A stretch of 32,000 nucleotides of DNA from Psychrobacter cryohalolentis K5 (GCF_000013905.1 NC_007969.1:1080001-1112000); one strand, 5' to 3'; counted from the stretch's first letter, positions 1 to 19,184 are shown. A program made the numbers and translations. Notes: a model not told the origin generated them from the letters alone.

Positions 1-2628
1 CCTATCTTTACTAATATCAGTAATATTTTTAAAGATAACGTAATCTAATTGCATTTCTGTATTGGCAATAGCGTATGTAGTCATGAGCATTGATGAATGA
101 ATGTAATACTCAAAGCTACGATTAGGAGATATATGTCCGACTAATCCTGAAATTGCATACCATCTATCTTGAGCATCATGATTAACTCCTAATAGCCCGG
201 TCTTTACCTTGGCAATATATTGATTGTCGTAACCAGTTAACGTTTTTACAAGCTGATCGTTAGCATTCAAAACAAGTGATAAGTTAGTAATGGCTGTATG
301 TCTGAATGCGTGGAATGTATGATCCTTTGCTTCGATTAAGCTCAGTATTCTTCTCAGTACGGCAAGAGGTTCTGCATCATCAATTGGGTATTTGTCAAAT
401 GAGTGACTAAATATATAATCTGTTTTATTAAGCTCGTTCAGTTGTATATATTGATTAAAAAACTTCAATTCCTCGTCAGATAGTAGTGAGAAAACTGCTA
501 CTCGGCGGATACTACCTTGAGTTTTTGTGCTGCGGTAGATATTTGGACGAATAACTAAAGAGGGTTCACCAAGGGTAAATCCTTCAATATCTTCATACCT
601 TAATCCAAGCAACTCTTTCTTCCGCATGCCTGTACGGTATGCTAAAACAAACAACAGTTTGTACATATCCACTTCGAAGGGATCAACAACTTTTGGCATA
701 TTCAATAAAATTGCTTGATACTCTAGTGGTGAAATCCATTCGCTACGTACCACTCTTTGTGTCTGGGCCTCTTTAATACTGACTTTAGGGAAGTGATAGT
801 GTTCAACCCCTATATCATGTAACCGCTGCAGTAGCTTTGCTGAATATTGGATGTCTTTATTATCACGATAGACAGCTTTGTGCTCTAAAATCTCTTCGTA
901 GCATTCTTCAAAATCCTCACTACTGTAAGTGTTTAGAGGCTGTCCTGATAAGAAATAAAGCCACTCATAAGCTACCGAACTTAAATAGCCCTGAATGGTC
1001 TCTTTTTTAGGGCGTGGCTTTACGTTACATCTAGACAGCACAAACTGAATTAAAATCTTTTCAGCAATGTCACGCTCTTCATTTAACATCTTTGTTAAAT
1101 GATAGTTAATATCATATTCATTATTTTTGAGTTTTTCTTTTTGTTGACGAGTATTGTAGTGACTGTCTAACTGTTTATAAATACGTTTCACGATATCTAT
1201 CTTACGTACTTCCGCCAACTCAGAATACCTAACGGTATTTTTGCTGATCTTAGATAGAGGTGCCTCGATTGATAAAGAGGGTTTGTTAGTTTTATACTCT
1301 TTATTTAGTAAGTTGGAAAAATCATCTGGGAGTAGACCTGTGGTTTTACGCTTGCCTTGTGCAACTCCGATTAGAGCTTGATCAACAAAGACATTGGGCA
1401 TCATTTCCCAATGATAACTCGCATAACTTAGCAACCATGGTAGAGAAGGGACCTTATTTTTAGGTATTTGTAAGACAATACTGAGGTGGTTTCTAAGCAG
1501 TTTTTCAATATCTGTGTTCGTCCTAAACTGATAAGGATCATTAAACTTTCTACATCGGTACAACCAGCATTGGCTGATGACGTCTAGAGAGACTTGCTGA
1601 GTAATGTATAAAGAGCTCTTTCTTACATTAGGAGACTCCACTCTTTCATTACCATAATTTTTTGTAGGGTAACGTACAGAAACAATGACATGATGATCAT
1701 TGAAAGCAGTTAAGACTGGTTGATCTAACAGAGTATTGACTAAAGCCGCCAGTAATTCTTTATCATTAATCCCGCCAAAAGCTATTAGTGAGAATATAAG
1801 CGACGCTAAGGACTGATTTTGATCTTTACTTGCCGCCGCCCAATCTGCCATCATCGCTTTAGTTATTTTATTAAAAAGCTTGCCGTTTTTTACCCAGTTT
1901 TCATCAATTGATAGTGGGTTTTCCTTTACTAAAACAGGCTCACTGGGTAAAGGGTAGGCATACTCTGACTGCATATAAAACGCGTTGTAGTAGCTGACAA
2001 ATTTAGTCAAAACCTCCCAAGTATAGCGAAACTGAGCCATTGAAGTATAAATTTTAGAACAGACTTGATGTATCAGTTTTTTTGCTTGTTTTAAAAAAGC
2101 TTCGAAGTACTGTTCATCAAGTGGGTGTGTCATTAATGCTAACTGAACTAAATAATCAGCATAAGTTACTTCCCATTGCTTTAGTTTAATATCGTCAGTT
2201 GGCTTGGGGTGTTTTTCTAGGTAGATCTTTTTATATCTCTCTGTTGAAAGAATCTTGTAGCCGTAAAAGCTTTTATCTACCTTTTTTTGATTGACTAGGT
2301 TTTGAAAGTCTTGGAATGCTTGTTTTTGGATATCGTCCCATAGAGTTTGAAAAATACTTAGCAATTCATATTTTTGATAGGTACGTTTTGATACGTCATC
2401 TTGGTTTACACTCAATATGTTTTTATCGCCTTTTCGTTTGGTAAACCCAGCAATAATTTTAGGTGGAAAAACATTTTTATTTATGATTGAAGGGTTAATA
2501 GGCTGTTTTTTTACCTCACGCGGCTTACTTTTGTTCTTGCGTTTAGATTTCTGAGTTTGCTGCGGCTTTGCTAATTCTTTGCGCGGCTTGTGGCTATCGT
2601 TATTTGATTTATTTTTTAATGGTTTCAT
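1..2628 (-). CDS. Large tyrosine recombinase (phage-integrase fold), partial: 3' end runs off the left edge (at least 876 codons)
   Basis: Absent from the ORF track because it has no stop in the window. The reverse frame is open from the ATG at 2628-2626 to base 1 in my own translation. Catalytic set is readable: YRTGMRKKELLGL (about 600-660), HAFRHTAITN (about 298-330), GLVGHISPNRSFEYYIHS (YY codons at 103-108), giving R...HxxR...H...Y. It starts 6 nt after the stop of the upstream recombinase-like gene. Confidence 0.8.
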   Translation of the reverse strand, partial: MKPLKNKSNNDSHKPRKELAKPQQTQKSKRKNKSKPREVKKQPINPSIINKNVFPPKIIAGFTKRKGDKNILSVNQDDVSKRTYQKYELLSIFQTLWDDIQKQAFQDFQNLVNQKKVDKSFYGYKILSTERYKKIYLEKHPKPTDDIKLKQWEVTYADYLVQLALMTHPLDEQYFEAFLKQAKKLIHQVCSKIYTSMAQFRYTWEVLTKFVSYYNAFYMQSEYAYPLPSEPVLVKENPLSIDENWVKNGKLFNKITKAMMADWAAASKDQNQSLASLIFSLIAFGGINDKELLAALVNTLLDQPVLTAFNDHHVIVSVRYPTKNYGNERVESPNVRKSSLYITQQVSLDVISQCWLYRCRKFNDPYQFRTNTDIEKLLRNHLSIVLQIPKNKVPSLPWLLSYASYHWEMMPNVFVDQALIGVAQGKRKTTGLLPDDFSNLLNKEYKTNKPSLSIEAPLSKISKNTVRYSELAEVRKIDIVKRIYKQLDSHYNTRQQKEKLKNNEYDINYHLTKMLNEERDIAEKILIQFVLSRCNVKPRPKKETIQGYLSSVAYEWLYFLSGQPLNTYSSEDFEECYEEILEHKAVYRDNKDIQYSAKLLQRLHDIGVEHYHFPKVSIKEAQTQRVVRSEWISPLEYQAILLNMPKVVDPFEVDMYKLLFVLAYRTGMRKKELLGLRYEDIEGFTLGEPSLVIRPNIYRSTKTQGSIRRVAVFSLLSDEELKFFNQYIQLNELNKTDYIFSHSFDKYPIDDAEPLAVLRRILSLIEAKDHTFHAFRHTAITNLSLVLNANDQLVKTLTGYDNQYIAKVKTGLLGVNHDAQDRWYAISGLVGHISPNRSFEYYIHSSMLMTTYAIANTEMQLDYVIFKNITDISKDR

Positions 2629-2634
2629 TTGCTA

Positions 2635-5019
2635 TCACATTCTTAAATTCATTTGTTGTGCGATTTCCTCAAAGGTATCACGCACTTGCCAAATTTGTTG
2701 CTTGTTTACTGATGAGAATTGTCCCAATGCTTCTTGTCGGTTTTTTTCGTGACCAATCACTGTGTTAATCAAGATCATTGAAACGCCAAGCTTTTCAAGT
2801 TGGGTACGTAAGAAGTGCCGTGTCCAATAAGAATCCTCAAAAGGCATGTAATCTGCTAACAGTTTTGAGATATGGCTTCGCTTGATTTTAATAAGTTTAT
2901 CGTAATTATCTGATAGTATATTTAGGAGGGTTAACTCATCTTGCTCTTGTTTGATCTGATGAATCATTTTATCGACCTTGGCAGTCGCATAAGGCTGATA
3001 ATCGACAAGAAATAATTGGTACTTTTTTAAAATCGCCAAAAGAGTAGGGCACAGTGGAATTAGCCGATGGTTTTTGACAACCTTGTTAGGTTTGTCAGCA
3101 ACTTCATACCAGCCTGTCTCTAAGTCAATATCTTTAACATTAGTCAGTCCATTATTTGGGCGAGTGCCGGTCAACAAACAAAACTGGATCCAAACAAGAG
3201 CACTATACCTATTAAAGCGCTCCTCCTTATCACCGCTATTACCAACCCATACCCATAGGTTCTGTAAAAAAATATTGACGTACTCTAATGTCAAAGCAAA
3301 TCCAGAGCCTGTAGTAAAATCTGTTCTGGTGCTCGGCTGGCTAATAAAACTATCGTCTAATTGATTATCATAGTTAAGCAGCTCTATCGCTTGACGATAA
3401 CGATTAACAAGAAAATCGTTACTATGGCTGCTGTAGTAGGTAGAGGGCGCAAGAGATGCTGGTATTCGACAAATCAGATCAGCAATATGTTGATTACTAC
3501 CCTGAATGTATCTGTGTAAGATGATATGTAAAGCGGTTTCAATCCGTACTATTGATAGATAGGGTAAGTTTATCTCTTCCTTTATAGCCCGAATATAGTC
3601 TAAGATATCCTCCTTGCTTGATAAATTTCTTTCATTAGAAAGGAGTTTTATTAATCCCATTGGCATGGGCAGACGGATGATACTTTCTTGGTTTTCGTGG
3701 ATACTTGCATCATACTCCTGCTTGCGATCAGTGATTTGCAGCTGATACTGCAAATATGCAGTATCTTCCAAAACGGTGAATAACCCAGAACCTGAAATGA
3801 AACCAGTTGTCATTAAAAACTCTACAGGAACGGCTGTCATCATTGATAGGAGTAAGATTAAAGAGGCTTTATTGTGTTTATAGTCGTATCGATGTGAATC
3901 TATCGCTAATCTGCCAAAAACCTGTTTTAAGCCTGCGACAGAAAGCGTTCGGACATTAGAGTTAAGCTCTAATTCTCTCTGACTAATATAACTATGATGA
4001 ACGTTTTTTTCTATCCTATGTAACGGTTGCATGTAACGAATTTTCTTATCAGGCAAATCTAAACTGACAATTAGTGGACGTTCTAAAGTATCAATATATT
4101 CTTCAATATTTCTAGGTTTTGTTGAGTTTGGTGAGTACAGTTCATAATCAAAATTTGGTATTGCAGGATGTTGATAGTATAAATGTGGAGCATCGTTTTC
4201 AATATCGTATCTACTCAGATTCCAATAACTATTCTCTATCCAGGTTGAACCGTCTACAAAACTAGCTAACTGTTCGGTAATCTCGCTTTTAAAAGTATTT
4301 AAATATTTTTCTTCAGCATCTTCATTTTTACCTTGCCGAGTGATTTTTTTATGTGGATAGTAGGCTTGTTCAAAGCATTTAACAATCGCATCAAGCTGAT
4401 TGATTTTTTTACTGCGTAATTTGATGGTTGCGTCACTTTCCACAGTTCTAGTTAGTAGCTCGTTTCGCACTTCTTGTTCGTACGCTATTTTTCTTAATTG
4501 GGCTATAAAAAATCTATGGAGAAAGTCTACTGTATCTGATAAGCCTTCAATATCGTCAAGTTTTGGTAATATCTCCCAAATCCATCTGTTGTTGTTAGAT
4601 TTAAAAAATACGGGTAATTTGAATCGGTTAATTATATTCGTTAAATGCCTCTTTGCTTTTTTGTGATGTGATAATAACAAATACGTGTGAATGGATATGC
4701 ATAACCATATTATTTCTTTGTGCTCATCACGGGTTAAGTTAGCTACCAAGAAAAGTGGTTGTAGAATCGGAGGTAATGCATTAAGTGTCTTTTTACTGAC
4801 TTCTTCTTGAAAAAGCAAACCGTTTTTTATAGCTATCAACTGCTCTATTAAAGGTGGCGATCGTTGTTGAACGCTTAAATTAATTAAAGTGGCAATTTCC
4901 TTTAGTGAGGCTATCCAGTTCTCAGTGTAGTTATATTCATCTTCAACACTTAAAAAATCAACTTGCTCAATAAGCTGGCTATCCGTCAAAAGAACAATTT
5001 GATTACCATCATCAGGCAT
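2635..5019 (-). CDS. Large tyrosine-recombinase-like protein (794 aa) with Phe at the expected nucleophile position
   Basis: The C-terminal third shows LLTGTRPNNGLTNVKDIDL (box I Arg), HRLIPLCPTLL, WTRHFLRTQL (HxxR) and VIGHEKNRQEALGQFSS. The residue 11 positions after the GH His is Phe (TTC, 2716-2718), and there is no Tyr anywhere in the last 41 residues. The gene is tightly packed between the 179-aa ORF and the next recombinase. Confidence 0.75.
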   Translation of the reverse strand: MPDDGNQIVLLTDSQLIEQVDFLSVEDEYNYTENWIASLKEIATLINLSVQQRSPPLIEQLIAIKNGLLFQEEVSKKTLNALPPILQPLFLVANLTRDEHKEIIWLCISIHTYLLLSHHKKAKRHLTNIINRFKLPVFFKSNNNRWIWEILPKLDDIEGLSDTVDFLHRFFIAQLRKIAYEQEVRNELLTRTVESDATIKLRSKKINQLDAIVKCFEQAYYPHKKITRQGKNEDAEEKYLNTFKSEITEQLASFVDGSTWIENSYWNLSRYDIENDAPHLYYQHPAIPNFDYELYSPNSTKPRNIEEYIDTLERPLIVSLDLPDKKIRYMQPLHRIEKNVHHSYISQRELELNSNVRTLSVAGLKQVFGRLAIDSHRYDYKHNKASLILLLSMMTAVPVEFLMTTGFISGSGLFTVLEDTAYLQYQLQITDRKQEYDASIHENQESIIRLPMPMGLIKLLSNERNLSSKEDILDYIRAIKEEINLPYLSIVRIETALHIILHRYIQGSNQHIADLICRIPASLAPSTYYSSHSNDFLVNRYRQAIELLNYDNQLDDSFISQPSTRTDFTTGSGFALTLEYVNIFLQNLWVWVGNSGDKEERFNRYSALVWIQFCLLTGTRPNNGLTNVKDIDLETGWYEVADKPNKVVKNHRLIPLCPTLLAILKKYQLFLVDYQPYATAKVDKMIHQIKQEQDELTLLNILSDNYDKLIKIKRSHISKLLADYMPFEDSYWTRHFLRTQLEKLGVSMILINTVIGHEKNRQEALGQFSSVNKQQIWQVRDTFEEIAQQMNLRM

Positions 5020-5030
5020 TATATTCCTCG

Positions 5031-5570
5031 CTATTTTTTTGACTCATTTCGTGCGTTATCGTATGTATTTTTATGGATGTTCATGTGTCTGCAAAACAGC
5101 AGGATAGTATAACTATTAAGATTAAATAAATACTGACACTGTTTTGTGGTCAAAGCTGTTTTCAACTCTTGATGGATATTGTAATAATTTAAATTTTCTT
5201 GGTATCGTATGGCTCTATTGAGTATGTTAATTAACTCATAAAAAATATTTTCCAACCTATGAAGTTTAAGGAATTCATCGTTATTAACACATATGCAGTG
5301 TAATTGTCTATCTGTAGCATGATGTATGTATTTTTTACAGAAGAAAGCCAAAATATAGTTATTTAAGAAGATGAAATCTTTATCTGTGATTGCAACCAAT
5401 GTAGTAGTAGCTAAAGCTCTTTCAATTTCTATCTCAAGAAAGCCATCTTCTAGTTTTGATAAGATCTCATAAGTTAGAATATAAAGTTGCTTAAACTCGT
5501 CATGATAAGTAATAAACTGCTCTGAGATATAACTGAGTGAGTATTGTTTTAATTTCACTTTATAATCCAT
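5031..5570 (-). CDS. Hypothetical 179-aa protein, first gene of the recombinase operon
   Basis: ORF on the same strand, ending 11 nt upstream of the 794-aa gene. No motif recognised. Its position resembles the small accessory genes of multi-recombinase elements. Confidence 0.45.
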   Translation of the reverse strand: MDYKVKLKQYSLSYISEQFITYHDEFKQLYILTYEILSKLEDGFLEIEIERALATTTLVAITDKDFIFLNNYILAFFCKKYIHHATDRQLHCICVNNDEFLKLHRLENIFYELINILNRAIRYQENLNYYNIHQELKTALTTKQCQYLFNLNSYTILLFCRHMNIHKNTYDNARNESKK

Positions 5571-5664
5571 TATCTGATAATGTTGCAGGATGCATGCTCA
5601 GTAATTAGGGGAGGGGTACGCTATAAGCAGGCTTTCATAATTGAAGCCATCAAAGATTCAATGG

Positions 5665-7781: not shown

Positions 7782-8153
7782 TTATAGAAAGTCGTCTTGC
7801 ATAGTCACTTTCTGCTGAGGGTGAAGAATAACTGCTATACCATGTTCCTCATCCCAAGAACAATTACAGAGTAAAGCAAACTCTCCATCACGGTTAAACT
7901 GTAATGCAGTAGGTTGGACCACAGAATTAGTAATATTGTTTGTCCCTGTATAATCGTTTAACAGTTCTAAAGATTTTAACTCAAAGTCTGAATGATTGTT
8001 ATCGAAAAGTTTGTAGGATTGCTCTTGCTCATTAGTAACATGCTCTCCTTGAAACGCACTGAAAACGCAATCTATTACAAAATCCTGTTTATTAAGCTTA
8101 AATTTAATAGGTTTCCGCCAGCCATATTTAAATGATAGGTTTGAAATATCCAT
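7782..8153 (-). CDS. Small acidic protein, putative cognate immunity/antitoxin of the upstream nuclease
   Basis: 123-aa ORF starting 10 nt after the nuclease stop, with an AAGGA Shine-Dalgarno. No catalytic motif. The call rests on position only, following the toxin-then-immunity order typical of polymorphic toxin loci. Confidence 0.4.
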   Translation of the reverse strand: MDISNLSFKYGWRKPIKFKLNKQDFVIDCVFSAFQGEHVTNEQEQSYKLFDNNHSDFELKSLELLNDYTGTNNITNSVVQPTALQFNRDGEFALLCNCSWDEEHGIAVILHPQQKVTMQDDFL

Positions 8154-8163
8154 TTTGTAATCC

Positions 8164-8793
8164 TTAGTTATTTGTAATTAACAGCTGTTTTTTGGCAACA
8201 GATATACCACCTTCATGAGGGATGTTATTGTGTACTTCAGAAGGAACAAGTTGCATAGTTTGACAGTCTTTGCATTCATGCCAAGTATAACCATTTTCTT
8301 TACGCCAATTAGCAACCTCTCTAGGTGTGCATTCCCACTTTTCAGCAAGTTTTTCATCAGCTTGAGGAAAGTTCATGTTTCTTTCAGTTGTGAAGTTATC
8401 TATTTTTACTTCATCCTTCATTATTTCCGAAAAATCCGGTTCACCATCTTTAAAAGATATTCCATCAATACCATATTTTTCTTTGAGCTCACCCCAAGTT
8501 AAATTATCCGGATTAGCTTTTAAAGGTATAAAGTTATCATCAGGATTCCATGTTGAGTTGCCCACTTCATCTACCCAATCACCATTACTTACTGGTAGAT
8601 AGGCATTAGATGGACTGATTTCGAGAGACTGTGGATAATACTCTGTAGACCAAGGCTGATCACTAGCAAAGATATTACCTCCCTTATTATTAGGAAAGGT
8701 ATCCCAACATCCATCTTTAGAAAGTAGACTTTCATCAATAATAGGCTTATCGAGTGTTTTCAAAACCTCACTTTGTTTAATAAACTCGATCAT
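8164..8793 (-). CDS. HNH/EndoVII-superfamily nuclease toxin domain protein (WHH / GH-E-like)
   Basis: The C-terminus reads GYTWHECKDCQTMQLVPSEVHNNIPHEGGISVAKK (DNA about 8195-8293). This matches the remembered WHH-family pattern tWHH..g.mqLVp..lH....HtGG. Its start ATG overlaps the ATPase stop (ATGA at 8790-8793). No signal peptide, PAAR, Rhs or LXG-like N-terminus is visible. Confidence 0.7.
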   Translation of the reverse strand: MIEFIKQSEVLKTLDKPIIDESLLSKDGCWDTFPNNKGGNIFASDQPWSTEYYPQSLEISPSNAYLPVSNGDWVDEVGNSTWNPDDNFIPLKANPDNLTWGELKEKYGIDGISFKDGEPDFSEIMKDEVKIDNFTTERNMNFPQADEKLAEKWECTPREVANWRKENGYTWHECKDCQTMQLVPSEVHNNIPHEGGISVAKKQLLITNN

Positions 8794-11700
8794 AAAATCA
8801 TATCCTTAGAAATATTTTGCCAGGCAGTGCTTAAATCATTATGAATACTACGTGTCATATTATCTGATAGTTGAGTTAAATGATTTTTCAGTAAGGTATC
8901 CGCTAATACGTTTAGCTCCACCTTACTTGACATACGAGTTAACTGAGAACTAATCGTTTCTCGTATACCTAATACAGAAAGTAATAAGTTTGTTGCATTA
9001 GTATGATCGGACCATATTGTTGTATGACCGGTTTTTTCAACTTGTTGTATCGAATTAAGCAACCCAATCTTATAATTAGTAGCTATGTTATATTTTTTAG
9101 CACCATCTTTGAGTATCTGTAAGTCAAACGGCTCTGTCTCATCCATTCGTTTATGAAGTAGCAACCTTGCTAAGTGAAGATTAAACTCTTTACGCTGAGT
9201 GCCCACAGTAACTTGTGTAGTAGTGGGGCACTCATATATTTTTTCTTCCCCACTAAAACGATTAATTTTACAAAGGACAGGCTCTAACCAGTTATTTTGA
9301 TAAATAACAGCAACGCCTCTAGGTAGCCTTGCAATCTCTTCAAGCTGGTCGTCGCTGACTGCTGCTGCTTTACCTATTAAGCGACGATCCTGTTCGTCAG
9401 GCAACCTCAAAATAATTTTAGTATTGGTATTACGTATAGCTGAACTGTCCACTGCACTTGGTGATTGGTCAGCAATAATAAAGCCTTCGCCGTAAGTACG
9501 CATCTCAGCGATAGAGTTTGAAAGCATCTCAACGGCTTTACCAGCCACATTTGACCCTTCAGAGCTTTGTTCAGTAGAGGTTCTCTTTAAAAGATGATGA
9601 GCTTCTTCAAGGATAGTGACGTGTTTAAGAGGTTGGTTCATGCCAGAGAATGCCATACGGCGCTCGTTAAGGCGCATGATCAATATACCCATAATGAGAG
9701 ATTTTGTCTCTTGTGAACCGACGCGACTTAAGTCAATGATAACGTTAGAGTCAAAAAGTATATCATTATCAATTTCATCAGAAGCAAAAATCTGACCATT
9801 TAAACCGTTGGTCAAACTTTTAACCCGTGTTGCAAGCGAACCAATATAATTACTTTTAACCTCGTCTGAGTATGCTGATGTATTTATAACGTTATTAATT
9901 GCTTCCAATAAATCATTAAAGTTTGGAAAGATATCTTCGGAATAATAGTTATATGAATTATCAATGTCCCAACCACTGTCTTTGTAGGCTTGAAGCATGG
10001 CATCTTTTAGAACTGCAGGCATCGCAGCATACATCGACCAACACACGTTAAAGATTTCAATGAGTCTATCGATATGTTCTAAAACGTGAATACTTTTGGG
10101 GAATTTAAAAGGGTTTATTTTTAGTAAAGGAGCTTGAGATGGATTGGTTGAAAAAACATGAACATTCTCTAGATGGCCAAAGACATGTTTATATTCACCC
10201 TTAGTAGGTTCAATGACCAAAAATGGAATATTCTTTTTCTGTAGTTGATACATTAACTCGTATACAGTATTACTTTTACCTGACCCTGTTGAACCTGAGA
10301 TAAACACATGACTGGTTAAATTATCGATATCTAAACTAACTTTTTGTGGTAAGTCATTCCATAAGTGTCGAATAACGCCTAGCTCGATGCTTTTATTAGT
10401 AGCAATGTTATGACCATCCAATGATTTGACTTGTCTACCAAATGCTTGAGTTTCTACCACAGCGGTGCTGGAAGTAGATCGACGTGGCATACTAAGCTGA
10501 ATTGCCATCTCTTTACCGGATACTAATGTTGCTGGAGTTAAATATTTAAGCGGTAGAGTGTTGAAAAAATTAGCGTTAAGCCTAGGGTGGTTGAGAACCT
10601 TCAACCATTCAAGCACACTTTGCATTTTACTATTGTTAGATTTATCCCACGTAGTTAAAGCAAAATCCTCAGTATCTGAATTGCCGCCACGCATCAAACC
10701 TAAAAATATGCTTGCTAGAGTCTCAGATGAAGCTGTGCTATTGCCAATAAAGTAGGCAGCGGTTTGCCAGCCACCATAGCGAGAGGCTTCGTCGACACGC
10801 TCTAATTGTTTATCAATCTTCTTAAGCATTTGCTCAATACTTTTATCCGTCATATCAAGCGTTAATTGACGGCTTGAGCCTGTAGTTTTAGTATCTGACT
10901 GAGAGTTGGTTTCACTATTGGTACTGGTTTCACCAGTAGTTCGCCCTGCTGCAGTACTAAAGCTAGTACCTTTATTAACTCCTTGCGACTCTGTATAGCT
11001 AGTACCAGTCGTTTGATTTTCAGCGAATGGATCACTTAGCATTCTACCTACATTACTACCTATCATTGAGCCAATACCAGCTCCTATACTAGCCCCTACT
11101 GGCCCACCTAATGGTGCACCCAATATGCCACCTGCTACAGTAGCGCCTAATGTGATAGCAGTTCCACCAAAAGACGCTACTTTAGATTTATTGGTTTGTT
11201 CAGAAAGTGATTCTGAAGTCCCATAAGCTTTAGAGGTGTTTGTTCCTTCTGTAATTCCAGACGTTTCGGTTTGGCTCAAGCTATCACTTAATGACTGGCT
11301 AAGGCCATGACTGATTGATAGGCTGATAGCCTCACTATCATTCTCGCCATAAGACATTTGTTGTTTTAACAATGGTGAGAGTTGAGTAGCGACACTTTCG
11401 TAACCAGAACGTATATGAGAAAGCTGGGTAGGGGTAACTGGTTCAGCTAAAATAACTGCAGAATAATTATGTCCTTCGGCAGCATCAATGAAGCGCTCGA
11501 GCCCTTGCATAAAGTGCTCTCTTTCTTCCACAGATAGAGAAGGTACACCGGTAACTGCAGTTACAGACTGGACTGTAGACGTACCATCATGGTTTTCGCA
11601 GTATAGACTATCCATTAGGGTTTGAGTTGCTGAACCATTTAATGGTGTAAGCTCACTACCAGAAAAGTGGCCCTTAAAGGTTTCCTGCAATAGCTGACCT

Positions 11701-12062
11701 GCGGTGCCACCTTGAGTGCCACCTGATTGACCACGAGTACCTAAGTATAAGTGAGTCTCAGAACCATCACAGTCTAAAAATATAAACACCGAAAACCCAG
11801 CAGCACCTAACGCATTATAAGCAGCTGTCATACTTTCTAAAACTGATTGCTTATTTTCAAGGACGATGCGCTCAACTTTAAATATTCTAACGTCAGAGCT
11901 TAAGTTAATCTTGTGATTAAATCGTGGTGCAATATCACAGTGACTCAGCTGTGACAGGTAGCTTTTGTTTATCAGATTGCTAGCATCTTGAAGGGCATTA
12001 AATGCCTGTTGTCGTATAAGTTCAGCTTCTGTTTTAGTGGCAAGTGCTATCTGGTTAGTCAT
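8790..12062 (-). CDS. HerA/FtsK-clade P-loop ATPase (1090 aa) with unknown N-terminal domain and Ser/Thr-rich plus glycine-zipper membrane insert
   Basis: Walker A is HVFISGSTGSGKSNTVYEL (DNA about 10270-10310) and Walker B is HVTILEEAHHLL. The HerA-like tail reads FIIADQSPSAVDSSAIRNTNTKIILRLPDEQDR. Residues about 245-400 are Ser/Thr/Gly low complexity flanking GGTAITLGATVAGGILGAPLGGPVGASIGAGIGSMIGSNVG (DNA about 11043-11171). Confidence 0.8.
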   Translation of the reverse strand: MTNQIALATKTEAELIRQQAFNALQDASNLINKSYLSQLSHCDIAPRFNHKINLSSDVRIFKVERIVLENKQSVLESMTAAYNALGAAGFSVFIFLDCDGSETHLYLGTRGQSGGTQGGTAGQLLQETFKGHFSGSELTPLNGSATQTLMDSLYCENHDGTSTVQSVTAVTGVPSLSVEEREHFMQGLERFIDAAEGHNYSAVILAEPVTPTQLSHIRSGYESVATQLSPLLKQQMSYGENDSEAISLSISHGLSQSLSDSLSQTETSGITEGTNTSKAYGTSESLSEQTNKSKVASFGGTAITLGATVAGGILGAPLGGPVGASIGAGIGSMIGSNVGRMLSDPFAENQTTGTSYTESQGVNKGTSFSTAAGRTTGETSTNSETNSQSDTKTTGSSRQLTLDMTDKSIEQMLKKIDKQLERVDEASRYGGWQTAAYFIGNSTASSETLASIFLGLMRGGNSDTEDFALTTWDKSNNSKMQSVLEWLKVLNHPRLNANFFNTLPLKYLTPATLVSGKEMAIQLSMPRRSTSSTAVVETQAFGRQVKSLDGHNIATNKSIELGVIRHLWNDLPQKVSLDIDNLTSHVFISGSTGSGKSNTVYELMYQLQKKNIPFLVIEPTKGEYKHVFGHLENVHVFSTNPSQAPLLKINPFKFPKSIHVLEHIDRLIEIFNVCWSMYAAMPAVLKDAMLQAYKDSGWDIDNSYNYYSEDIFPNFNDLLEAINNVINTSAYSDEVKSNYIGSLATRVKSLTNGLNGQIFASDEIDNDILFDSNVIIDLSRVGSQETKSLIMGILIMRLNERRMAFSGMNQPLKHVTILEEAHHLLKRTSTEQSSEGSNVAGKAVEMLSNSIAEMRTYGEGFIIADQSPSAVDSSAIRNTNTKIILRLPDEQDRRLIGKAAAVSDDQLEEIARLPRGVAVIYQNNWLEPVLCKINRFSGEEKIYECPTTTQVTVGTQRKEFNLHLARLLLHKRMDETEPFDLQILKDGAKKYNIATNYKIGLLNSIQQVEKTGHTTIWSDHTNATNLLLSVLGIRETISSQLTRMSSKVELNVLADTLLKNHLTQLSDNMTRSIHNDLSTAWQNISKDMIL

Positions 12063-12082
12063 GTTTTATCCTATATTTATAG

Positions 12083-13012
12083 TTATCTTAACTTCGCTAT
12101 CAAAGCCAGTATGCCTGCTAGAACAGCGCCACCAATTATAACGGCAGTCTTCATAAAGCTATTTTCTTGTTTAACATGGCTCGACTGCTTACTGCTTGAA
12201 CTGCTACTGGAGGTGTTGTTAAACTGAGGTTTCGGCTTAGGTTGAACTTTTATATGCTCGAAACCTTCTACACCTTTTTGAGCTAAGTAATCGCGAACAT
12301 TGATAAGATGCATTAATCTTTCCATAGCGAAGTTATGGTTAAGATAGCTTTGCTGTAAAAGGAAATAATCTTTATTCCAACTATTGTTGTTTTCAATTAT
12401 GGCAAGACAAAATTTATCTTCTTCATACTCAAGAAAGGCTTCTGGTATATTTTGACTTACAAACATAACCTCTTGAATAATATCTTTAACTAATAATCGA
12501 TTGTTTTTCAAATCAAACTTAATAATATTTTGTACAGCTCTTATGTCTTTTTTCGCGATTGATAGCTGTAGACTTTCTTTAGGTTCATATTCTTTGAGAA
12601 TATCCTTTAAAGCATCAGCATCAGGATTTTCAGATATTAGACTCACATCAATTTCTTGAGTTTCATTACTATTTTCTAGTGTTGACTTGGAGGTTTCGGT
12701 TATTGCAGGGGCATATTGCTCATTATTAATACCGAAGCCTTCTACTTTGTAATCTTGTAGGTAATGTTTTACAGCTATGATATGTTCACAACGCTTTTTG
12801 GAGAACTCCTTATGCTGTATTAGGCTAAGCTCTCCTCGGAAATAGTCTTCATTCCACATACTTTTATTTTTTTTAATTGGATATGTTTCATCATTGAATT
12901 CTACGAAATCAATAGATTGAATATTATCAAGTATGTTCTGAGATGTTTTAGCTGGTATTGAACCATTAGCAGATAGTTCAATAAATTCACTTTTACTATT
13001 TTTTGTGTTCAT
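12083..13012 (-). CDS. Tail-anchored membrane protein with an internally duplicated approx 60-aa domain
   Basis: 309-aa ORF with an AAGGA Shine-Dalgarno. Two related segments are present: ...SMWNEDYFRGELSLIQHKEFSKKRCEHIIAVKHYLQDYKVEGFG and ...NSWNKDYFLLQQSYLNHNFAMERLMHLINVRDYLAQKGVEGFE. These are followed by a poly-Ser linker and a single C-terminal TM helix, TAVIIGGAVLAGILALIAKLR. Confidence 0.6.
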   Translation of the reverse strand: MNTKNSKSEFIELSANGSIPAKTSQNILDNIQSIDFVEFNDETYPIKKNKSMWNEDYFRGELSLIQHKEFSKKRCEHIIAVKHYLQDYKVEGFGINNEQYAPAITETSKSTLENSNETQEIDVSLISENPDADALKDILKEYEPKESLQLSIAKKDIRAVQNIIKFDLKNNRLLVKDIIQEVMFVSQNIPEAFLEYEEDKFCLAIIENNNSWNKDYFLLQQSYLNHNFAMERLMHLINVRDYLAQKGVEGFEHIKVQPKPKPQFNNTSSSSSSSKQSSHVKQENSFMKTAVIIGGAVLAGILALIAKLR

Positions 13013-13119
13013 AACATTCCTTAGGATATATAGGTTTAGATAAGTAGAGTTTTACGGTATATCAGGATTAGCTGTAATATGGCATATAATTCTATTTAAA
13101 GATTATAAGATATAACAGC

Positions 13120-15432
13120 CTATAGAGCTAAAATATTGGTAATTTTAGTATTAAATGTATTAATGTGATTAAGTTCTGCTTTAGCCGTATTAATAGCTTT
13201 CTCACGTTCATCTTTATCATTAATCTTATTTTCTAAATCTGCCATTAGGTTATTAAAGCGTTCGCCAAACTCTTCGTTCATAAAATCAATATATATATCT
13301 ATAGTTTTATTGCTATTGTCCTTAACTTTCTTTACTGCTTCTGCAGAAAGATTTTCAAACACAGCGTCTATTTCTGGACCCCGTTTCGCCCACAAATCAT
13401 CAAGGCTAACAAACTCTTCTTCTTGATTTTCATAAATAGCTTCTTCTGTTGTGCTAAACCAACTAAAAGGGTTGTACCATGTTGAAGCACTAACAGTTCT
13501 TGTTCCTGTTTGAACTCTATGATGTTTAATCTGTACTTCATTCTGCCCTAAAGACATATTAAAAGATGCTATTTGGTTCTTTAAACCCTCTAGCATTGGT
13601 AGCTCTAACTCTGATACATCATTAAATAAGCTGGTTATATATTTATTATAATCTGCTGCTAATTCTGACTGTATCTCTAATTGGTCAGACTCAATGATCT
13701 TTTCTAAATTGATAATGCGTAAGTTAAACTCACTTTGTAAATCATGAGTTAATTTTTTGATTTTCTCTTGAGCCTGTCTTTTAGAGGCTTCTCCTTGAAA
13801 TTTGTTTCCAAAGTCATAAGTAGTCTCTCTCAGGATTTTTTCTTCCTGCATAAATGCTTGAGCTGTTTCTTTTCTTAGTCCTTTTTGCTGCTTTTTTAAT
13901 TTAGTGATATAACCATCTGTTTTGAACGCTTGTTTTTCTTTTTCCCGTAGTATGTTAATAGTCTCTTGCAGATTATTAAGTGCCTGCTGATCAGTTTCAA
14001 GTGATTTTTGTAGTTCAGCAGCATTAGTACATTGTTGTATGATTTGACTGAGTGCTTGATTGGCTCGTGTTACACGGTTAGGAAGACTGTATTTTTCGAT
14101 ATAGTCGTCTATCATCATCTCAACTGCGGGTAGACCACTACGATATAATGCTGTTGAGTAGTTTTTATTATTAATTTTTTCCTGAGTTTTTTTAGATAAG
14201 GGCATATACTGAACTAAATCCATACGTGGCTCTTCATTGAACAGCTCTTCCATTGCATTGATGACACCTCGTTCACTGCGTGTTAATAAGTCGATACTTA
14301 GCTCACGCTTGCGAAGCAAAGAGGTTAAGCTAGCAGATACTGGATATACCAAAGGATTGGCAATACCGTTGTTTTCTAGATATTGTTTGGCACGTGTAAC
14401 TACATCTTCGACATATTCGCCTTTTTCTGGGTCAAATACATCTGCTTTATTAATGACAAAGATAAAGCGATCTTTGCTTTGCTTACCTCCTTTACTCATA
14501 ACATCAGCAATTTGTTTTAGCAGACTTTGATCGTCGTTGATGCCTAGCTGTTGTCCATTTAGAATGTATAGAACTAACGGGTTACGATCAGAATCACTAA
14601 TATATCGCATAGTTGTTAGATTGTGTTCGCTATCTTGACTGTTATTAGGCCCTGGAGTGTCTGTTAAAACTAATCGAACACTCTCTCGTTCTTCTATTGC
14701 AGGTATTTTCCCCTCTATATTAATTCGGAATACATCAGGTGATTTATTCCACTCGCTCATTAGCTGAGATGCCGAGTCAGAGCCTGTTTTTGTCGTAAGA
14801 TTTAATTTTTGTTTCTCATTGACTATACAGTCTTTATTATCTGTACAGCTTACCGTAAAGTGACCTTGTGGCATATCGTCGTTATCAGTAATTTTAGCAA
14901 TTGTAGCTGTGGTTGCTTCGTTTAACGCTGGCAATAAGTCACAACCTAACATAGCATTGATCAGGGTAGACTTACCAGATGACATGGTTGCCACCACATA
15001 GACATCAAAGTTTTTATCAAACGCCGTATCAAACTTCTTGAGTATATCGGGAGTGTTAACATACTGTTTAAACAATGGATCTTGTTTTGCTTCTATTACA
15101 AGCTGTTGAATGTTTTCTAGACGCTCTTCTGAACCTGGTACTACGTCACACCACATCTTGACATTTATTCCGTCTTTGTTGGCTTGTTTAACGGCCTCTT
15201 CCATATCAGTACAGTCTGCTTCTACCCCTTTAAAGTGAACTCTGTATTCTTTTTCACCATTAAATATTTCATATAACTTCTGAAAGAATCCTTCAATCCA
15301 TAGCTGTAGACGTTGATTTTCATATTCAGCGAACTGAGAATTACTCTCAGGTTTTTGGTCATCGATGAGAAAGAAAGTCTCAACTGTAAAAGGATTGTGT
15401 GTGATAGCTACGTTAATCATAAAATACTCCAT
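13120..15432 (-). CDS. Dynamin-like (TRAFAC) GTPase, long form (about 766-770 aa) with N-terminal extension and long coiled-coil C-terminus
   Basis: G1 is VYVVATMSSGKSTLINAMLG (DNA about 14970-15005), G2 region is NEATTATI, G3 is LTDTPGPNN and G4 is VINKADV. The C-terminal approx 350 aa are heptad-like and rich in Glu, Lys and Gln. The start is more likely the ATG at 15420 (GGAG 6 nt upstream) than the one at 15432. Confidence 0.8.
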   Translation of the reverse strand: MEYFMINVAITHNPFTVETFFLIDDQKPESNSQFAEYENQRLQLWIEGFFQKLYEIFNGEKEYRVHFKGVEADCTDMEEAVKQANKDGINVKMWCDVVPGSEERLENIQQLVIEAKQDPLFKQYVNTPDILKKFDTAFDKNFDVYVVATMSSGKSTLINAMLGCDLLPALNEATTATIAKITDNDDMPQGHFTVSCTDNKDCIVNEKQKLNLTTKTGSDSASQLMSEWNKSPDVFRINIEGKIPAIEERESVRLVLTDTPGPNNSQDSEHNLTTMRYISDSDRNPLVLYILNGQQLGINDDQSLLKQIADVMSKGGKQSKDRFIFVINKADVFDPEKGEYVEDVVTRAKQYLENNGIANPLVYPVSASLTSLLRKRELSIDLLTRSERGVINAMEELFNEEPRMDLVQYMPLSKKTQEKINNKNYSTALYRSGLPAVEMMIDDYIEKYSLPNRVTRANQALSQIIQQCTNAAELQKSLETDQQALNNLQETINILREKEKQAFKTDGYITKLKKQQKGLRKETAQAFMQEEKILRETTYDFGNKFQGEASKRQAQEKIKKLTHDLQSEFNLRIINLEKIIESDQLEIQSELAADYNKYITSLFNDVSELELPMLEGLKNQIASFNMSLGQNEVQIKHHRVQTGTRTVSASTWYNPFSWFSTTEEAIYENQEEEFVSLDDLWAKRGPEIDAVFENLSAEAVKKVKDNSNKTIDIYIDFMNEEFGERFNNLMADLENKINDKDEREKAINTAKAELNHINTFNTKITNILAL

Positions 15433-15437
15433 TAGTT

Positions 15438-16430
15438 TTATAAAGTGGTTTTTTGAAATTTATAATTAATAATGTTTTCTAATAAAGGTATACCGCTAAA
15501 ATAAATTAGTTGATTGATTTTACTTTTTGATATTTCTAACCCATCTTTGATCGTAATAGACATATCTTTTTTTTCTGTATTCGGTAATGATATAGTTTTT
15601 ACTTCATCAGATATATTATAAGAGGCTCTTATAAGTCTATCATCATCAAGGTTATGTATGTTTTGTTGTAGCAAATTACGTTCAAATCGAGTAAGAGGTT
15701 CTTTATTTAATACTTTTCTAGCATTTAATGCAGAAAGTGCAGATACTGGTATAATACTAGGGTTTATGAAACCAATGTTTTTTAAATAAGAAGCTATGTT
15801 TCTTACAAAAATTTCAATATCCTCACCTTTTTCTTCATCTAAAACGTCTGCTTTATTAAGTATAAATATAATATTTTTATGCTTATCAGTTTTTAAAACC
15901 TGACTTATCTGTGATAAAAATAGCTTATCGTCATTAATGCCAATTTGAGTAGCGTTTAATACATAGATAATCATTCCATAACGACCATCGCTTACTAAGT
16001 TCAAGGTTAAGTCTTGATGTGTATTATCTTGGCTATTATTAGGACCTGGTGAGTCATACAATACAATGTGCTTACTAGAGTTTTTTATAGAAGGGATATT
16101 ACCGGTTAGACTAATATAGTTGATATTGTTATCCGCATTCCATTTTTTCAATGTTTCACTATCAATAACACTCTTATAGTCTAGAAACTTCAATCTTGCT
16201 TTTTCATTTGATTTAATAGGTTCAAAATTATATGCGGAACCATTAAAGTTATTCTGCTGGTCCTTATTGTGTATTCTCGTTATAGTCGCTGTTGTCGCTT
16301 CGTTAGCACAATGGAGCAGCTCTTTTCCTAACATTGAATTAATAAGTGTGGATTTTCCTGAACTCATCGTCGCTACAACAATAATTTCGAAAAAACTCAC
16401 TACTGACTTACTTCTCTTGTTTTTTGCCAC
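15438..16430 (-). CDS. Dynamin-like (TRAFAC) GTPase, short form (330 aa), paralogue of the downstream gene
   Basis: G1 is IVVATMSSGKSTLINSMLG (DNA about 16350-16385), followed by NEATTATI, G3 LYDSPGPNN and G4 ILNKADV. These motifs are near-identical to those of the 770-aa protein. The GTG start lies 3 nt after the WYL gene stop, and the stop lies 5 nt before the next gene. Confidence 0.8.
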   Translation of the reverse strand: MAKNKRSKSVVSFFEIIVVATMSSGKSTLINSMLGKELLHCANEATTATITRIHNKDQQNNFNGSAYNFEPIKSNEKARLKFLDYKSVIDSETLKKWNADNNINYISLTGNIPSIKNSSKHIVLYDSPGPNNSQDNTHQDLTLNLVSDGRYGMIIYVLNATQIGINDDKLFLSQISQVLKTDKHKNIIFILNKADVLDEEKGEDIEIFVRNIASYLKNIGFINPSIIPVSALSALNARKVLNKEPLTRFERNLLQQNIHNLDDDRLIRASYNISDEVKTISLPNTEKKDMSITIKDGLEISKSKINQLIYFSGIPLLENIINYKFQKTTL

Positions 16431-16433
16431 AAT

Positions 16434-17342
16434 CTAGTTTCCTATTAAATACTTACTTATAGTGATTTCTAAATCTTTCTGAATTTCGCTCGGACTAATG
16501 ATACGTATATAAGGTATCCAGTACTGAACAATAGGAACTACTTCTCTCGGATGTATGTTTTTACATGCTAGTAGCAAATCCCCACTGTCAAGTCTTTGTA
16601 CTAGATTTTGATTGGGCAATAAGTCACGCCGCTCAAAATATCCAGCGACCTTTGCATCGACCTGCAAGATAATCTCACTGATTTGATTGCCAAAGAATAA
16701 GCTATCCGTATCAAGAGTTTCTTTTTTGATATCCTCAGAGCATTGGAAGGTCTCAGTATTTATATGTAACTGGGTCATTTGCGTAAAGCAAAATGTTCTT
16801 GTTTGTCCATGAAGGCGACCTACTACATACCAAATACCATTTTTATTAAGCAGGTGATAAGGTTCTAATAAGTAATGTTTACTATTATTGGAAGCATAGT
16901 CACTGACCTTGCGATAATAAAACTCAATATATTGGTGATTAGTAATGGCTTGGTTAATAGTTCTAAAGTCGTCTGTACGTTCGCTTATATTTTCATAAGC
17001 GAAACCTTTAACGAAAATGCTTTGGTTAAGTTTTTCTTGGAAAAACTGACGGTCAATTTTCGGTAGTAAGTCTTGTACGCTAGCAAAACTAGCAAAACGC
17101 TGAATATCTGCTATATCTAGATATCCAATATTACTAGGGTGCAAGCGATAAAACTGTGGACCTTCTTCATAGAGCTCTAGTAAGGTCAAACGATCCTGAA
17201 AATCTCTCTTTAAGGTGCGGATAGAGACCTTATAGGTGTCTGCTAATTCAAAAATATTCAAACGCTCACCATCGTTAAGTCTAACGATAATGTCAGATAG
17301 TCGATACGCAAGCCTCTCATGTTTTCTCAATTTCATAATCAC
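16434..17342 (-). CDS. WYL-domain transcriptional regulator (HTH + WYL, CapW/BrxR/YafY-like)
   Basis: The N-terminal HTH reads RLSDIIVRLNDGERLNIFELADTYKVSIRTLKRDFQDRL. The WYL core reads HYLLEPYHLLNKNGIWYVVGRLHGQTRTFCFTQMTQL. It is the first gene of the operon. An alternative ATG start exists at 17336. Confidence 0.8.
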   Translation of the reverse strand: MIMKLRKHERLAYRLSDIIVRLNDGERLNIFELADTYKVSIRTLKRDFQDRLTLLELYEEGPQFYRLHPSNIGYLDIADIQRFASFASVQDLLPKIDRQFFQEKLNQSIFVKGFAYENISERTDDFRTINQAITNHQYIEFYYRKVSDYASNNSKHYLLEPYHLLNKNGIWYVVGRLHGQTRTFCFTQMTQLHINTETFQCSEDIKKETLDTDSLFFGNQISEIILQVDAKVAGYFERRDLLPNQNLVQRLDSGDLLLACKNIHPREVVPIVQYWIPYIRIISPSEIQKDLEITISKYLIGN

Positions 17343-18002: not shown

Positions 18003-19184
18003 ATGACTAAGAAAATCAGAACCTATAGTGCAGCTTTCAAAGCTGAAGCCGTCAAAAAATTAGCAGGTAATAATAGCAATGTTTAAGCGACTGCAAAGCA
18101 GCTAGGCATAGCCATGCAGACCTTATCTAACTGGCAGAACAAAGCGAATGAAGGCAAACTTATCGGCACTAAGCAGTATGACCCTGAACTCATGGCTATA
18201 CTAGAAGAGAATAAACGTCTTAAACGTGATCTCAAGATTGCTCAAGAGGAGCGAGAGATATTAAAAAAGGCCACGGCGTACTTCGCGAAACACAGTTGAT
18301 GAAGTACGTCTTTATCAAGGATAACCAGAAGATATTTAGCATTACCTGTATGTGTCGCGTATTAGATGTCAAGCCATCAAGCTATTACAACTGGATAAAT
18401 CGTGGTGTCAGTAATCAGCAGATCCACCGCAACCAGTGTGAGCTGCTGGTTCGCGTGGCTCATGATGAGACTAAGCAGCGCTATGGCTGTGAGCGATTGC
18501 ATGCTCATCTTGCAGGGCAAGGCCATCATATCAGTCAATACATGGTCAGACGAATCAAAAAGGAATACGGCATTGTTTGCCGTCGTCACAAGCGTTTTAA
18601 AGTTACTACCAACTCAAACCATAACAAGCTTATCTATCCAAACCTGCTCGATCAAAAATTTGATACCAGTCGTCCTAACGAAGCTTGGGTTAGTGACATC
18701 ACTTAGATATGGACAGATGAGGGTTGGCTATACTTAGCAGGCGTTAAAGACCTCTACACTAAAGAGATCATCGGCTATGCTATCCACAAGCGTATGACAG
18801 CAGATTTAGTTTGCCGTGCACTTAATATGGCCATCAAGAACAAACGAACCAGCCAAGCGCTGATTGTTCCCTCTGACAGAGGAAGTCAGTACTGTAGTTA
18901 CGAGTATCATAAGATCATTAAGAAACATAGATTTAAGGGCTCAATGTCCAGACGTGGTAATTGCTTTGATAACGCGCCCATAGAAAGCATCTCGGGTGAG
19001 GAGCACTGCTCCGCAAGGAAGAGTGAGTTGGTGTATCACCAAGACTATAAAACCAAGGTTTGGAGCCATCAGTGATATCACTAAATATATCGAACTAGAT
19101 TACAATCAGACTAGGATTCAAAAGGGTTTGGGCTATAAAACGCCAAGACAGATGTGGCTTGATTATTATCGTCAGGCTGCGTAA
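18003..19184 (+). pseudogene. IS3-family transposase OrfAB, disrupted
   Basis: orfA (MTKKIRTYSAAFKAEAVKK...) has an in-frame TAA at 18084-18086. orfB carries the DDE region WVSDIT*IWTDEGWLYLAGVKDLYTKEIIGY with TAG at 18704-18706, then SDRGSQYCS and GNCFDNAPIES. A further frameshift occurs near 19053, before AISDITKYIELDYNQTR. Confidence 0.8.
18263..18269 (+). promoter_or_regulatory. Programmed -1 ribosomal frameshift heptamer A AAA AAG of the IS3 element
   Basis: The heptamer lies in the orfA zero frame (TTA AAA AAG GCC). A -1 slip reads directly into the orfB frame (18296 onward), as is established for the IS3 family. Confidence 0.6.

Follow-up and report, generated by a model that had tools for sequence, protein, structure and literature searches.

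Psychrobacter cryohalolentis K5, whose 3.1 Mb genome is referred to here as G000, carries at the left edge of the stretch analysed (the window, 32,000 nt, G000:C1:1080001-1112000) three consecutive genes, here called A, B and C, which encode a small protein, a large protein with a predicted tyrosine-recombinase fold and a still larger, apparently complete tyrosine recombinase. This trio probably represents a second recombination module, heteromeric in make-up and located at the integrase-distal end of a genomic island, rather than a proven mobility engine. The initial annotation of the window had reported three co-directional, almost abutting genes, and the coordinates bear this out, with gaps of 11 nt between A and B and 6 nt between B and C. 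Gene C was read past the window edge into the flanking genome DNA, where its stop lies 824 nt to the left of window position 1, and the full-length protein has 1150 aa. The locus comprises the following features.

5031-5570, minus strand: gene A, 179 aa, a putative small accessory protein with a helix-turn-helix (HTH)-like C-terminus, defined by its open reading frame (ORF) and translation
2635-5019, minus strand: gene B, 794 aa, a predicted tyrosine-recombinase-fold protein in which the canonical nucleophile is not conserved
2638-3312, minus strand: catalytic-type domain of B, residues ~570-794, with R620, K643, Y731, R734, H757, F768 and S769
2716-2718, minus strand: codon TTC of Phe768, which likely corresponds in position to the nucleophile Tyr
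1-2628, minus strand: first 876 of the 1150 codons of gene C, a predicted giant, true tyrosine recombinase; the gene ends at G000:C1:1079176
79-729, minus strand: catalytic domain of C, residues ~634-850, with the codon of Tyr842 at 103-105
5571-5651, minus strand: upstream edge of the conserved module, a border between module and cargo with no sharp terminus
5652-32000, and on to G000:C1:1149856, on no single strand: island cargo, described in the last section

The three proteins and their conservation

By its sequence, C is a true tyrosine recombinase, with Tyr842 as the predicted nucleophile. PF00589 matches residues 634-802 (1.1e-12, 48.5 bits against a cut-off of 27.1), the integrase family phrog_1 of PHROGs matches at 3e-21, and the protein carries the motif GHISPNRSFEYYIHS. 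The full R/HxxR/H/Y set that had been read in the last gene is upheld by the PF00589 match and by R669, K702, H773, R776, H832 and Y842, which are invariant in 11 homologues at 19-87% identity; the same R-K-H-R-H-Y set is present in every Moraxellaceae locus with an intact C catalytic domain. About 630 extra residues precede this domain and about 300 follow it.

Neither A nor B has a match in Pfam, NCBIfam, PHROGs or PADLOC, and the PADLOC search of A, B and C gave no match to a defence component. At the sequence level, B and C have no BLASTP match to each other, full-length hhalign of the two families gave nothing useful, and domain-level hhalign of B against the C catalytic domain reached a probability of 1.4%. 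The catalytic-domain profile of B, compared with XerC/XerD of the same genome by hhalign, gave a probability of 89% (E 2e-6), and among the Protein Data Bank sequences searched with phmmer and hmmsearch XerD alone appeared, at a sub-threshold E of 1.4 that served for the register only. A profile search of 1.84 billion cluster representatives (50% identity) at E<=1e-3 retrieved 1537 B-like clusters, 726 of them at E<=1e-10, mostly 700-850 aa in length. An alignment of 112 representatives at 13-43% identity was the input for an AlphaFold (AF2) model of B, with a mean predicted local distance difference test (pLDDT) score of 87.6 and a predicted template modelling (pTM) score of 0.84. Among the matches listed by Foldseek for this model, the top 48 ranks are all tyrosine recombinases. 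The VIA-align Z values are 16.8 for archaeal XerA (171 residues, root-mean-square deviation 2.3), 15.8 for an S. aureus integrase, 13.0 for Tn1549 Int and 12.5 for XerH; 96 chains reach Z>=8, and all of those among the matches listed (50) are tyrosine recombinases or type IB topoisomerases. The aligned ranges divide B into a core-binding-like part (~311-420), a family-specific insert (~420-570) and a catalytic-type part (~570-790). The structure model and the XerC/XerD profile match together identify B as a predicted tyrosine-recombinase-fold protein, so that its description as a tyrosine-recombinase homologue holds at this level, albeit not as one that sequence databases recognize. With C and the small protein A, the locus has the make-up of a multi-recombinase module, as had been proposed.

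The register of the B active site was fixed by hhalign to XerC/XerD together with the agreeing sub-threshold hidden Markov model alignment to XerD, and it equates R620 with R148 of XerD (Arg I), K643 with K172 (the beta-hairpin Lys), R734 with R247 (Arg II) and H757 with H270 (His III). All four residues are invariant in 112/112 representatives, and S769 and H735 are each found in 111/112. The His II position (XerD H244) is Tyr731 in B and N96/Y12/D4 across the family. A telomere-resolvase cluster proposed as a relative (an Atlas lead, 0.88) was rejected as below trust level; it would suit the Tyr at the His II position, yet most of the family has Asn there.

Beyond His III, B reads GHEKNRQEALGQFSS, with no Tyr in the tail past Phe768. 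The Phe codon TTC and the Tyr-less tail had been correctly described from the sequence, but the HxxR seen at the same time is a literal match (H735..R738) that lies one turn out of register. B does not have the conserved nucleophilic Tyr expected about 9-10 residues after His III: Phe768 stands at 11 residues, against 9 in canonical enzymes, and by aligned-range offsets the Tyr equivalent falls within 765-774, with 768/769 as the most frequent estimate. Phe768 is therefore best described as the likely positional equivalent. The corresponding column reads Y60/F40/H13/M5/W5 in 144 representatives and Y41/F35/H12/W5/M4 in the 112-sequence alignment; across 94 Moraxellaceae loci the counts are F42/N18/M16/Y8. 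In 50 of the 112 aligned sequences, the 24 residues past His III contain no Tyr. When orthologues were checked for Phe, as had been suggested, the motif VIGHEKNRQEALGQFSS, like GHEKNRQEALGQFSS, proved identical among close Psychrobacter homologues (84-94% identity); at 37-40% identity the column is F or L, and in more distant subfamilies it is N, Q, H, M or Y. This variation extends throughout the family, and the missing Tyr is therefore an old family-wide trait rather than a recent mutation, with Phe ancestral to the clade; the unusual feature is the strong constraint on the phosphate pocket. A conserved Tyr elsewhere in B, which had been named as an observation that would count against the Tyr-less description, does exist, but outside the catalytic domain: Tyr529, invariant in 112/112, lies in or near the family-specific insert and has as neighbours G571 (invariant) and S572 (nearly invariant), at the catalytic domain's entry. 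B most likely does not cleave DNA itself; because of Tyr529, a non-catalytic B is likely but not secure.

The C-terminus of A is HTH-like, with the consensus LFG..FTI..FCR.IGIS..TY. Its AF2 model has a pLDDT of 75.6, and a wide fold search with it found no chain at Z>=5, the best Z being 4.5, with ParB-N-like chains at 4.4, 4.2 and 3.8. The likeness to ParB-N, which draws on these weak Z values and an Atlas lead (0.87), was kept as a lead only.

Gene order and distribution mark A-B-C as one conserved unit. In 12 divergent Psychrobacter loci, C directly follows B in all 12 and a small A homologue precedes B in 11. The order A-B-C recurs in 80/80 further loci, 63 of them intact and 6 at contig ends, with 10 in which B and/or C is split into several ORFs and 1 double copy. 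In nine long cluster representatives the front part matches the B profile and the rear part the C profile; eight of these (1387-1924 aa), whose C matches are near full length, are natural fusions. B relatives occur in 88 of 143 Psychrobacter species genomes, often several per genome, in subfamilies at 85-91%, 34-50% and 22-33% identity. Moraxella also carries the trio, Acinetobacter plasmids have one of 145/755/1062 aa and a Vibrio cyclitrophicus plasmid one of 197/743/995 aa, and plasmids of Aliarcobacter and Sulfuricurvum give tblastn matches to B. A literature search found no description of the A-B-C trio.

Two individual loci may be mentioned here. On a clinical plasmid of A. baumannii (L047, NZ_CP038501.1 46426-59910), the trio lies between resistance and insertion sequence (IS) genes and the rep gene, with aac(3)-IId at a distance of 3.7 kb and the gene for an IS1008 transposase at 1.4 kb. 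In Psychrobacter sp. MF31 (L131, NZ_JABBDX010000001.1:89876-103545), two trios stand in a row and the first C is truncated at 443 aa; this could be either a tandem pair or one element that has inserted into another's C gene, and could reveal the A-side boundary.

The island and its two ends

The trio lies in an island of about 71 kb inserted in tRNA-Gly(GCC). Direct repeats of 93 bp with 2 mismatches, each made up of the terminator and the 3' 50 nt of tRNA-Gly(GCC), flank it as attL (1078695-1078787) and attR (1149764-1149856), and the intact tRNA-Gly(GCC) stands at the right-hand end (1149807-1149881). A P4-type integrase of 414 aa (G000:C1:1147484-1148725), accompanied by a 97-aa ORF, is encoded 1.1 kb from this tRNA gene and about 62 kb from the trio, which occupies the tRNA-distal end and is transcribed outward. 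The whole is consistent in its layout with a P4-type tRNA-integrating genomic island. Extension of the sequence leftward, as the initial annotation had advised, reveals the expected island end just outside the window, with the terminus 409 nt past the C stop, and the assignment of this region as the left boundary of the island with the HerA/dynamin operon is confirmed; the third recombinase that was looked for is not there but is the P4-type integrase at the opposite, tRNA-proximal end. A 536-bp spacer follows C, and then come only ordinary chromosomal genes, for a TRAP-type binding protein, a DUF1244 protein, an SRPBCC protein and a pseudouridine synthase. That the genes might be fixed in the chromosome is contradicted by the closest relative without the island (G114), where the left flank runs straight into DNA that is 71 kb off in G000, leaving an empty site, and by the element end, which abuts five different flanks in eight genomes.

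In these eight genomes the end reads ...AACATTGCCAAGGTTGGG (GGGGT in 7/8), always 409 nt past the C stop, and its flank is the tRNA-Gly 3' half in four and unrelated DNA in the other four. A single mismatch separates the terminal 19 bp from the tRNA-Gly anticodon arm, also where tRNA sequence is absent from the flank. In G099 the island starts at tRNA-Gly with the integrase, and the trio end abuts DNA that is 55 kb off in G000; in G103 the trio end lies between a ribosome-binding site and its start codon, a site that is uninterrupted in relatives, and 20 kb are missing. Chromosomal deletions of 55 kb and 20 kb thus lie beside the trio end in these two genomes. Other trio subfamilies have sharp ends of their own, at 43, 82, 117, ~160, ~278 or ~593 nt past C and next to flanks that differ. 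The terminus beside C is therefore precise and recombinationally active. In this subfamily the same sequence is also attL of the P4-type integrase system, so that the data are compatible with either enzyme acting on it. On the A side, homology stops at window position 5619 (G099, FME13) or 5651 (G103) and continues in others.

Searches of the island and genome found no inverted-repeat partner of the terminus, and the short repeats that the 400-bp end region contains are weak. A compact island in G118 showed no direct repeat of tRNA-Val at its trio end. Several subfamilies share, close to their termini, a motif resembling TTG(G)CAA(G), which was set aside as evidence because of its shortness.

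The relation between integrase and trio was read from the coordinates of two genome searches, which gave 35 same-contig cases. In 29 of them the integrase and A-B-C share a strand, with the integrase upstream, at a gap of 4-33 kb in 25 and of 43-62 kb in the remaining four, which are close-subfamily islands; in four further cases the trio has the opposite orientation to the integrase, and in two the integrase lies just beyond the trio end. In these two, L066 (P. immobilis NCIMB361, 14356-15600) and L068 (P. piscatorii JCM 15603, 14352-15575), a second P4-type integrase lies 1.1 kb past the partial tRNA-Gly that flanks the trio end, an arrangement that indicates islands stacked in tandem at tRNA-Gly. 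Divergence runs in parallel (integrase from 100 to ~58%, B from 100 to ~37%), the ~58% integrase subfamily pairing with the ~37% trio subfamily, and in Moraxella osloensis the order int, 96 aa, 123 aa, A, B, C is contiguous. Because of this co-orientation, parallel divergence and contiguity, the trio can be regarded as a core part of the island family, with cargo presumably inserted between the trio and integrase modules. Complete genomes that lack this integrase family can harbour distant trio subfamilies, and the integrase in turn has orthologues in species with no B homologue, so that neither module strictly needs the other.

Two observations concern possible further sites. A second tRNA-Gly(GCC) at G000:C1:2531014-2531088 shares a 78-bp stretch at 100% identity with the island-end copy and is a potential alternative attachment site. 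A paralogue (~78% DNA identity) of the TRAP gene that flanks attL adjoins the ~58% P4-type integrase subfamily in many genomes (for example, G004:C3:103211-106201 and G103:C1:27064-30046), so that what looks like chromosomal DNA to the left in G000 may itself be what is left of an old island.

A proposed mechanism and its alternatives

In the reading that we favour on balance, with moderate confidence, B and C form a hetero-oligomer that, helped by A, acts at the distal terminus, with C as the sole cleaving subunit. B and C would assemble 1:1 on a core site at the terminus downstream of C, where C alone would cut and rejoin; one strand pair would be exchanged, as in XerC-only or XerD-only reactions, and replication or another enzyme would complete the exchange. 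B would serve as a diverged, DNA-binding partner of recombinase fold with an Arg-Lys-Arg-His phosphate pocket, and A as a small DNA-binding accessory factor. What we infer here comprises the B-C complex, the absence of cleavage by B, the action at the terminus and a division of labour with the P4-type integrase. The single-strand-exchange pathways of XerC and XerD, each of which is about 300 aa long and complete in its catalytic residues, offer a model for a heterotetramer with one active subunit, and Flp is a homotetramer in which the pocket is completed by a Tyr from the neighbouring subunit. These enzymes serve as models only, homology to the trio being claimed at the superfamily level alone.

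Several observations weigh against this mechanism. The equivalence of Phe768 with the nucleophile depends on spacing, in a column with 37-42% Tyr, and on rough aligned-range offsets. The near-invariant R-K-R-H pocket, Ser769 and Tyr529 are hard to square with a purely architectural B. The sharp junctions beside C could be the work of the P4-type integrase, which, standing beside tRNA-Gly, alone explains integration into the tRNA gene, and at least eight Psychrobacter species without a B homologue have orthologues of this integrase (91-98% identity). Finally, a search of the island and genome for a terminal repeat or a duplicate of the end region matched the tRNA-Gly genes alone. The initial annotation had called the trio the mobility module of the island: a multi-recombinase module at the boundary it is, but because integrase orthologues occur without any B homologue, its role in mobility is unproven.

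The alternative that survives best, possible though in our view the less probable, is that the P4-type integrase integrates and excises the island by itself and that the trio is conserved cargo or a leftover module with another DNA-rearranging job, which could be the resolution of tandem islands or multimers, or the inversion or deletion of DNA. The classic tRNA-int layout with its 93-bp direct repeat fits this well, as do the species in which the integrase occurs without the trio, the tandem islands in L066 and L068, and the trios on plasmids, where chromosomal integration is not needed. It accounts less readily for an integrase that in 29/35 cases shares its strand with A-B-C and lies upstream of it, that diverges in parallel with the trio and that is contiguous with it in Moraxella osloensis, or for the distant trio subfamilies without this integrase, which still end sharply.

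The conservation of the B pocket raises an alternative of another kind, which we consider unlikely, namely that B is catalytically engaged, either with its pocket completed in trans by the Tyr of C, as in Flp, or with Tyr529 or Ser769 as an unconventional nucleophile. Invariance such as that of R620/K643/R734/H757 and Y529 (112/112) and near-invariance such as that of S769 (111/112) normally signify chemistry, B-C fusions exist, and Tyr occupies column 768 in 37-42% of the wider family. Against this, C owns a full active site, Tyr529 sits in the family-specific insert, and we know of no serine nucleophile in the tyrosine-recombinase fold, which counts against such a role for Ser769. The Tyr-less subunits GinC and Tfp provide precedents for a non-catalytic partner, though these lack the pocket (PMC10214605).

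That the trio is a self-contained selfish element nested at attL, targeting the att ends of P4-type islands or sequences like the tRNA-Gly anticodon arm, seems quite improbable. Such an element would suit the terminal 19 bp, which mimic the anticodon arm without a tRNA flank, the decay of about one in eight copies and the occurrence of several copies per genome; G103, moreover, shares with G000 just window positions -1231..5651, i.e. the trio alone. However, the A-side border is ragged (5619, 5651 or absent), no terminal repeat pairs the two sides, and an IS at the A-side border in G103, beside a 20-kb stretch that its relative G109 keeps and G103 lacks, can explain the trio-only sharing. A recent inactivating mutation of B in this strain, which the initial annotation had entertained, can safely be set aside: TTC is one transversion from TAC and some relatives have Tyr at column 768, but the motif is identical in close homologues, the column is F or L at 37-40% identity, non-Tyr residues are found throughout the family with Tyr in just 8/94 Moraxellaceae loci, and gene B is intact and strongly conserved.

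Known systems, significance and island cargo

A B-C partnership of the kind favoured above has its closest counterparts in elements that combine catalytic and Tyr-less recombinase-fold proteins. The core of SE (strand-biased circularizing integrative elements) is intA-tfp-intB-srap (PMC10214605, PMC9345347) and that of the GInts is ginABCD, and in each case attL x attR recombination depends on the full set of four proteins (PMC10214605, PMC5385486); homology of the core to Tfp and Srap is the basis on which membership of the SE was assigned (PMC10214605). SE recombination between attL and attR is described as leaving no empty site and as having a 6-bp footprint. The trio resembles the SE in having a large recombinase, a Tyr-less protein of recombinase fold (Tfp, 580-770 aa), a small protein and an integrase of ordinary size, and further in its Gammaproteobacteria hosts, coupled or overlapping genes at one element end and variable cargo. 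When the B profiles (A2, A4 and C-terminal domain) and the C profile (A3) were compared with the eight core proteins of SE-6283 and SE-6945 (RefSeq pSEA1), with A left out, the best match among IntA, Tfp, IntB and Srap had an E of 0.0068 and 3.8 bits, and Tfp an E>=0.22. The two systems also differ in layout: the SE order intA-tfp-intB-srap runs inward from the left end between imperfect inverted repeats of 13-19 bp, whereas the trio runs small/Tyr-less/large and outward, its ordinary integrase is usually at the opposite island end, and its island sits in a tRNA gene with a 93-bp direct repeat. Tfp is reported without the RHRY residues, while B keeps an Arg-Lys-Arg-His pocket, and IntB is about 400 aa shorter than C. 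Membership of the trio in the SE is thus rejected on sequence, order and direction.

GInts likewise have three integrase-like proteins and one small protein, the degenerate GinC often being annotated as hypothetical, and a core that delimits the island end next to variable cargo (PMC5385486). They differ in that their operon has four genes, lies at the island 5' end and encodes two catalytic recombinases, as against one (C) in the trio operon; GinC is reported without the first Arg, which B keeps, and the ordinary integrase of the trio lies about 62 kb off here, though it is contiguous in Moraxella osloensis. The GInts are set apart by description only. Tn554 (TnpA, TnpB, TnpC) and the recombinase-in-trio (RIT) elements also bring several tyrosine recombinases together, with a small third protein in Tn554, but all of their recombinases have the catalytic Tyr and 300-630 aa, compared with 794 for B and 1150 for C, no Tyr-less subunit is present, and hosts, termini and gene order differ from those of the trio. 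RIT recombinases have 315-410 aa (PMC10214605). Tn554, RIT and GInt resemble the trio in outline, by analogy only. The present island as a whole fits the P4-type islands in its insertion in tRNA-Gly(GCC), in the direct repeat that restores the 3' half of this tRNA, in an integrase encoded 1.1 kb away from it, in the empty site of a relative and in tandem accretion. To our knowledge, no such island has been described with a second, giant heteromeric recombinase module as its conserved distal core.

Machines with a Tyr-less subunit, such as those of GInt and SE, are recent and poorly understood, and the trio would add a separate and abundant lineage. It also offers a test case for the division of catalysis, whether by exchanging a single pair of strands or by obtaining a Tyr in trans, with a subunit B that keeps its pocket while the nucleophile position drifts and that is sometimes fused to its catalytic partner C. 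A broader proposal, which we put forward tentatively and regard as doubtful, is that the B family consists of a new class of half-site tyrosine recombinases, whose pocket, with Ser769 and Tyr529, would be a functioning catalytic centre without a C-terminal nucleophile of its own and would either be completed in trans by the C Tyr or employ an unconventional nucleophile, and which with A form a third, sequence-unrelated lineage of GInt/SE-like systems. If true, the half-site B class with A would be widespread in Proteobacteria (1537 clusters at 50% identity). In practical terms, the A-B-C genes can serve as a marker for the distal end of the defence-laden islands of Moraxellaceae, and they occur on plasmid records with resistance genes.

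The cargo beyond the module includes a WHH toxin with a DUF6985 protein, a HerA-like ATPase, two dynamin-like GTPases, a WYL regulator and fragments of IS3 and IS256, followed by an HNH protein, a methyltransferase and a large superfamily 1 (SF1) helicase. At 7782-8793 (minus strand), directly downstream of the HerA-like gene, a WHH/colicin-DNase-type nuclease toxin of 209 aa (PF14414, 1.5e-18) is followed by the DUF6985 protein of 123 aa, probably its immunity partner. The operon at 8790-17342 (minus strand) encodes the WYL regulator (302 aa), the dynamin-like GTPases (330 and 770 aa), a 309-aa protein of unknown function and the HerA-like ATPase (1090 aa), which matches the mad8 and HerA models of PADLOC (best 7e-26); the operon, kept in the G099 island, is a candidate defence system carried as cargo. 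Two stretches on the plus strand, 18296-19075 and 21710-22991, contain IS3-family fragments (HTH_21, rve) and a transposase of the IS256/Mutator type that is divided into ORFs of 129 and 323 aa; another two ORFs of just these lengths (323 and 129 aa) are found next to the P4-type integrase, at G000:C1:1145483-1146764. At 26535-30053 (plus strand), a 1172-aa protein combines RNase_H_2 with an SF1 helicase (AAA_11/AAA_12), and upstream of it are the genes for the HNH protein (353 aa) and the methyltransferase (208 aa).

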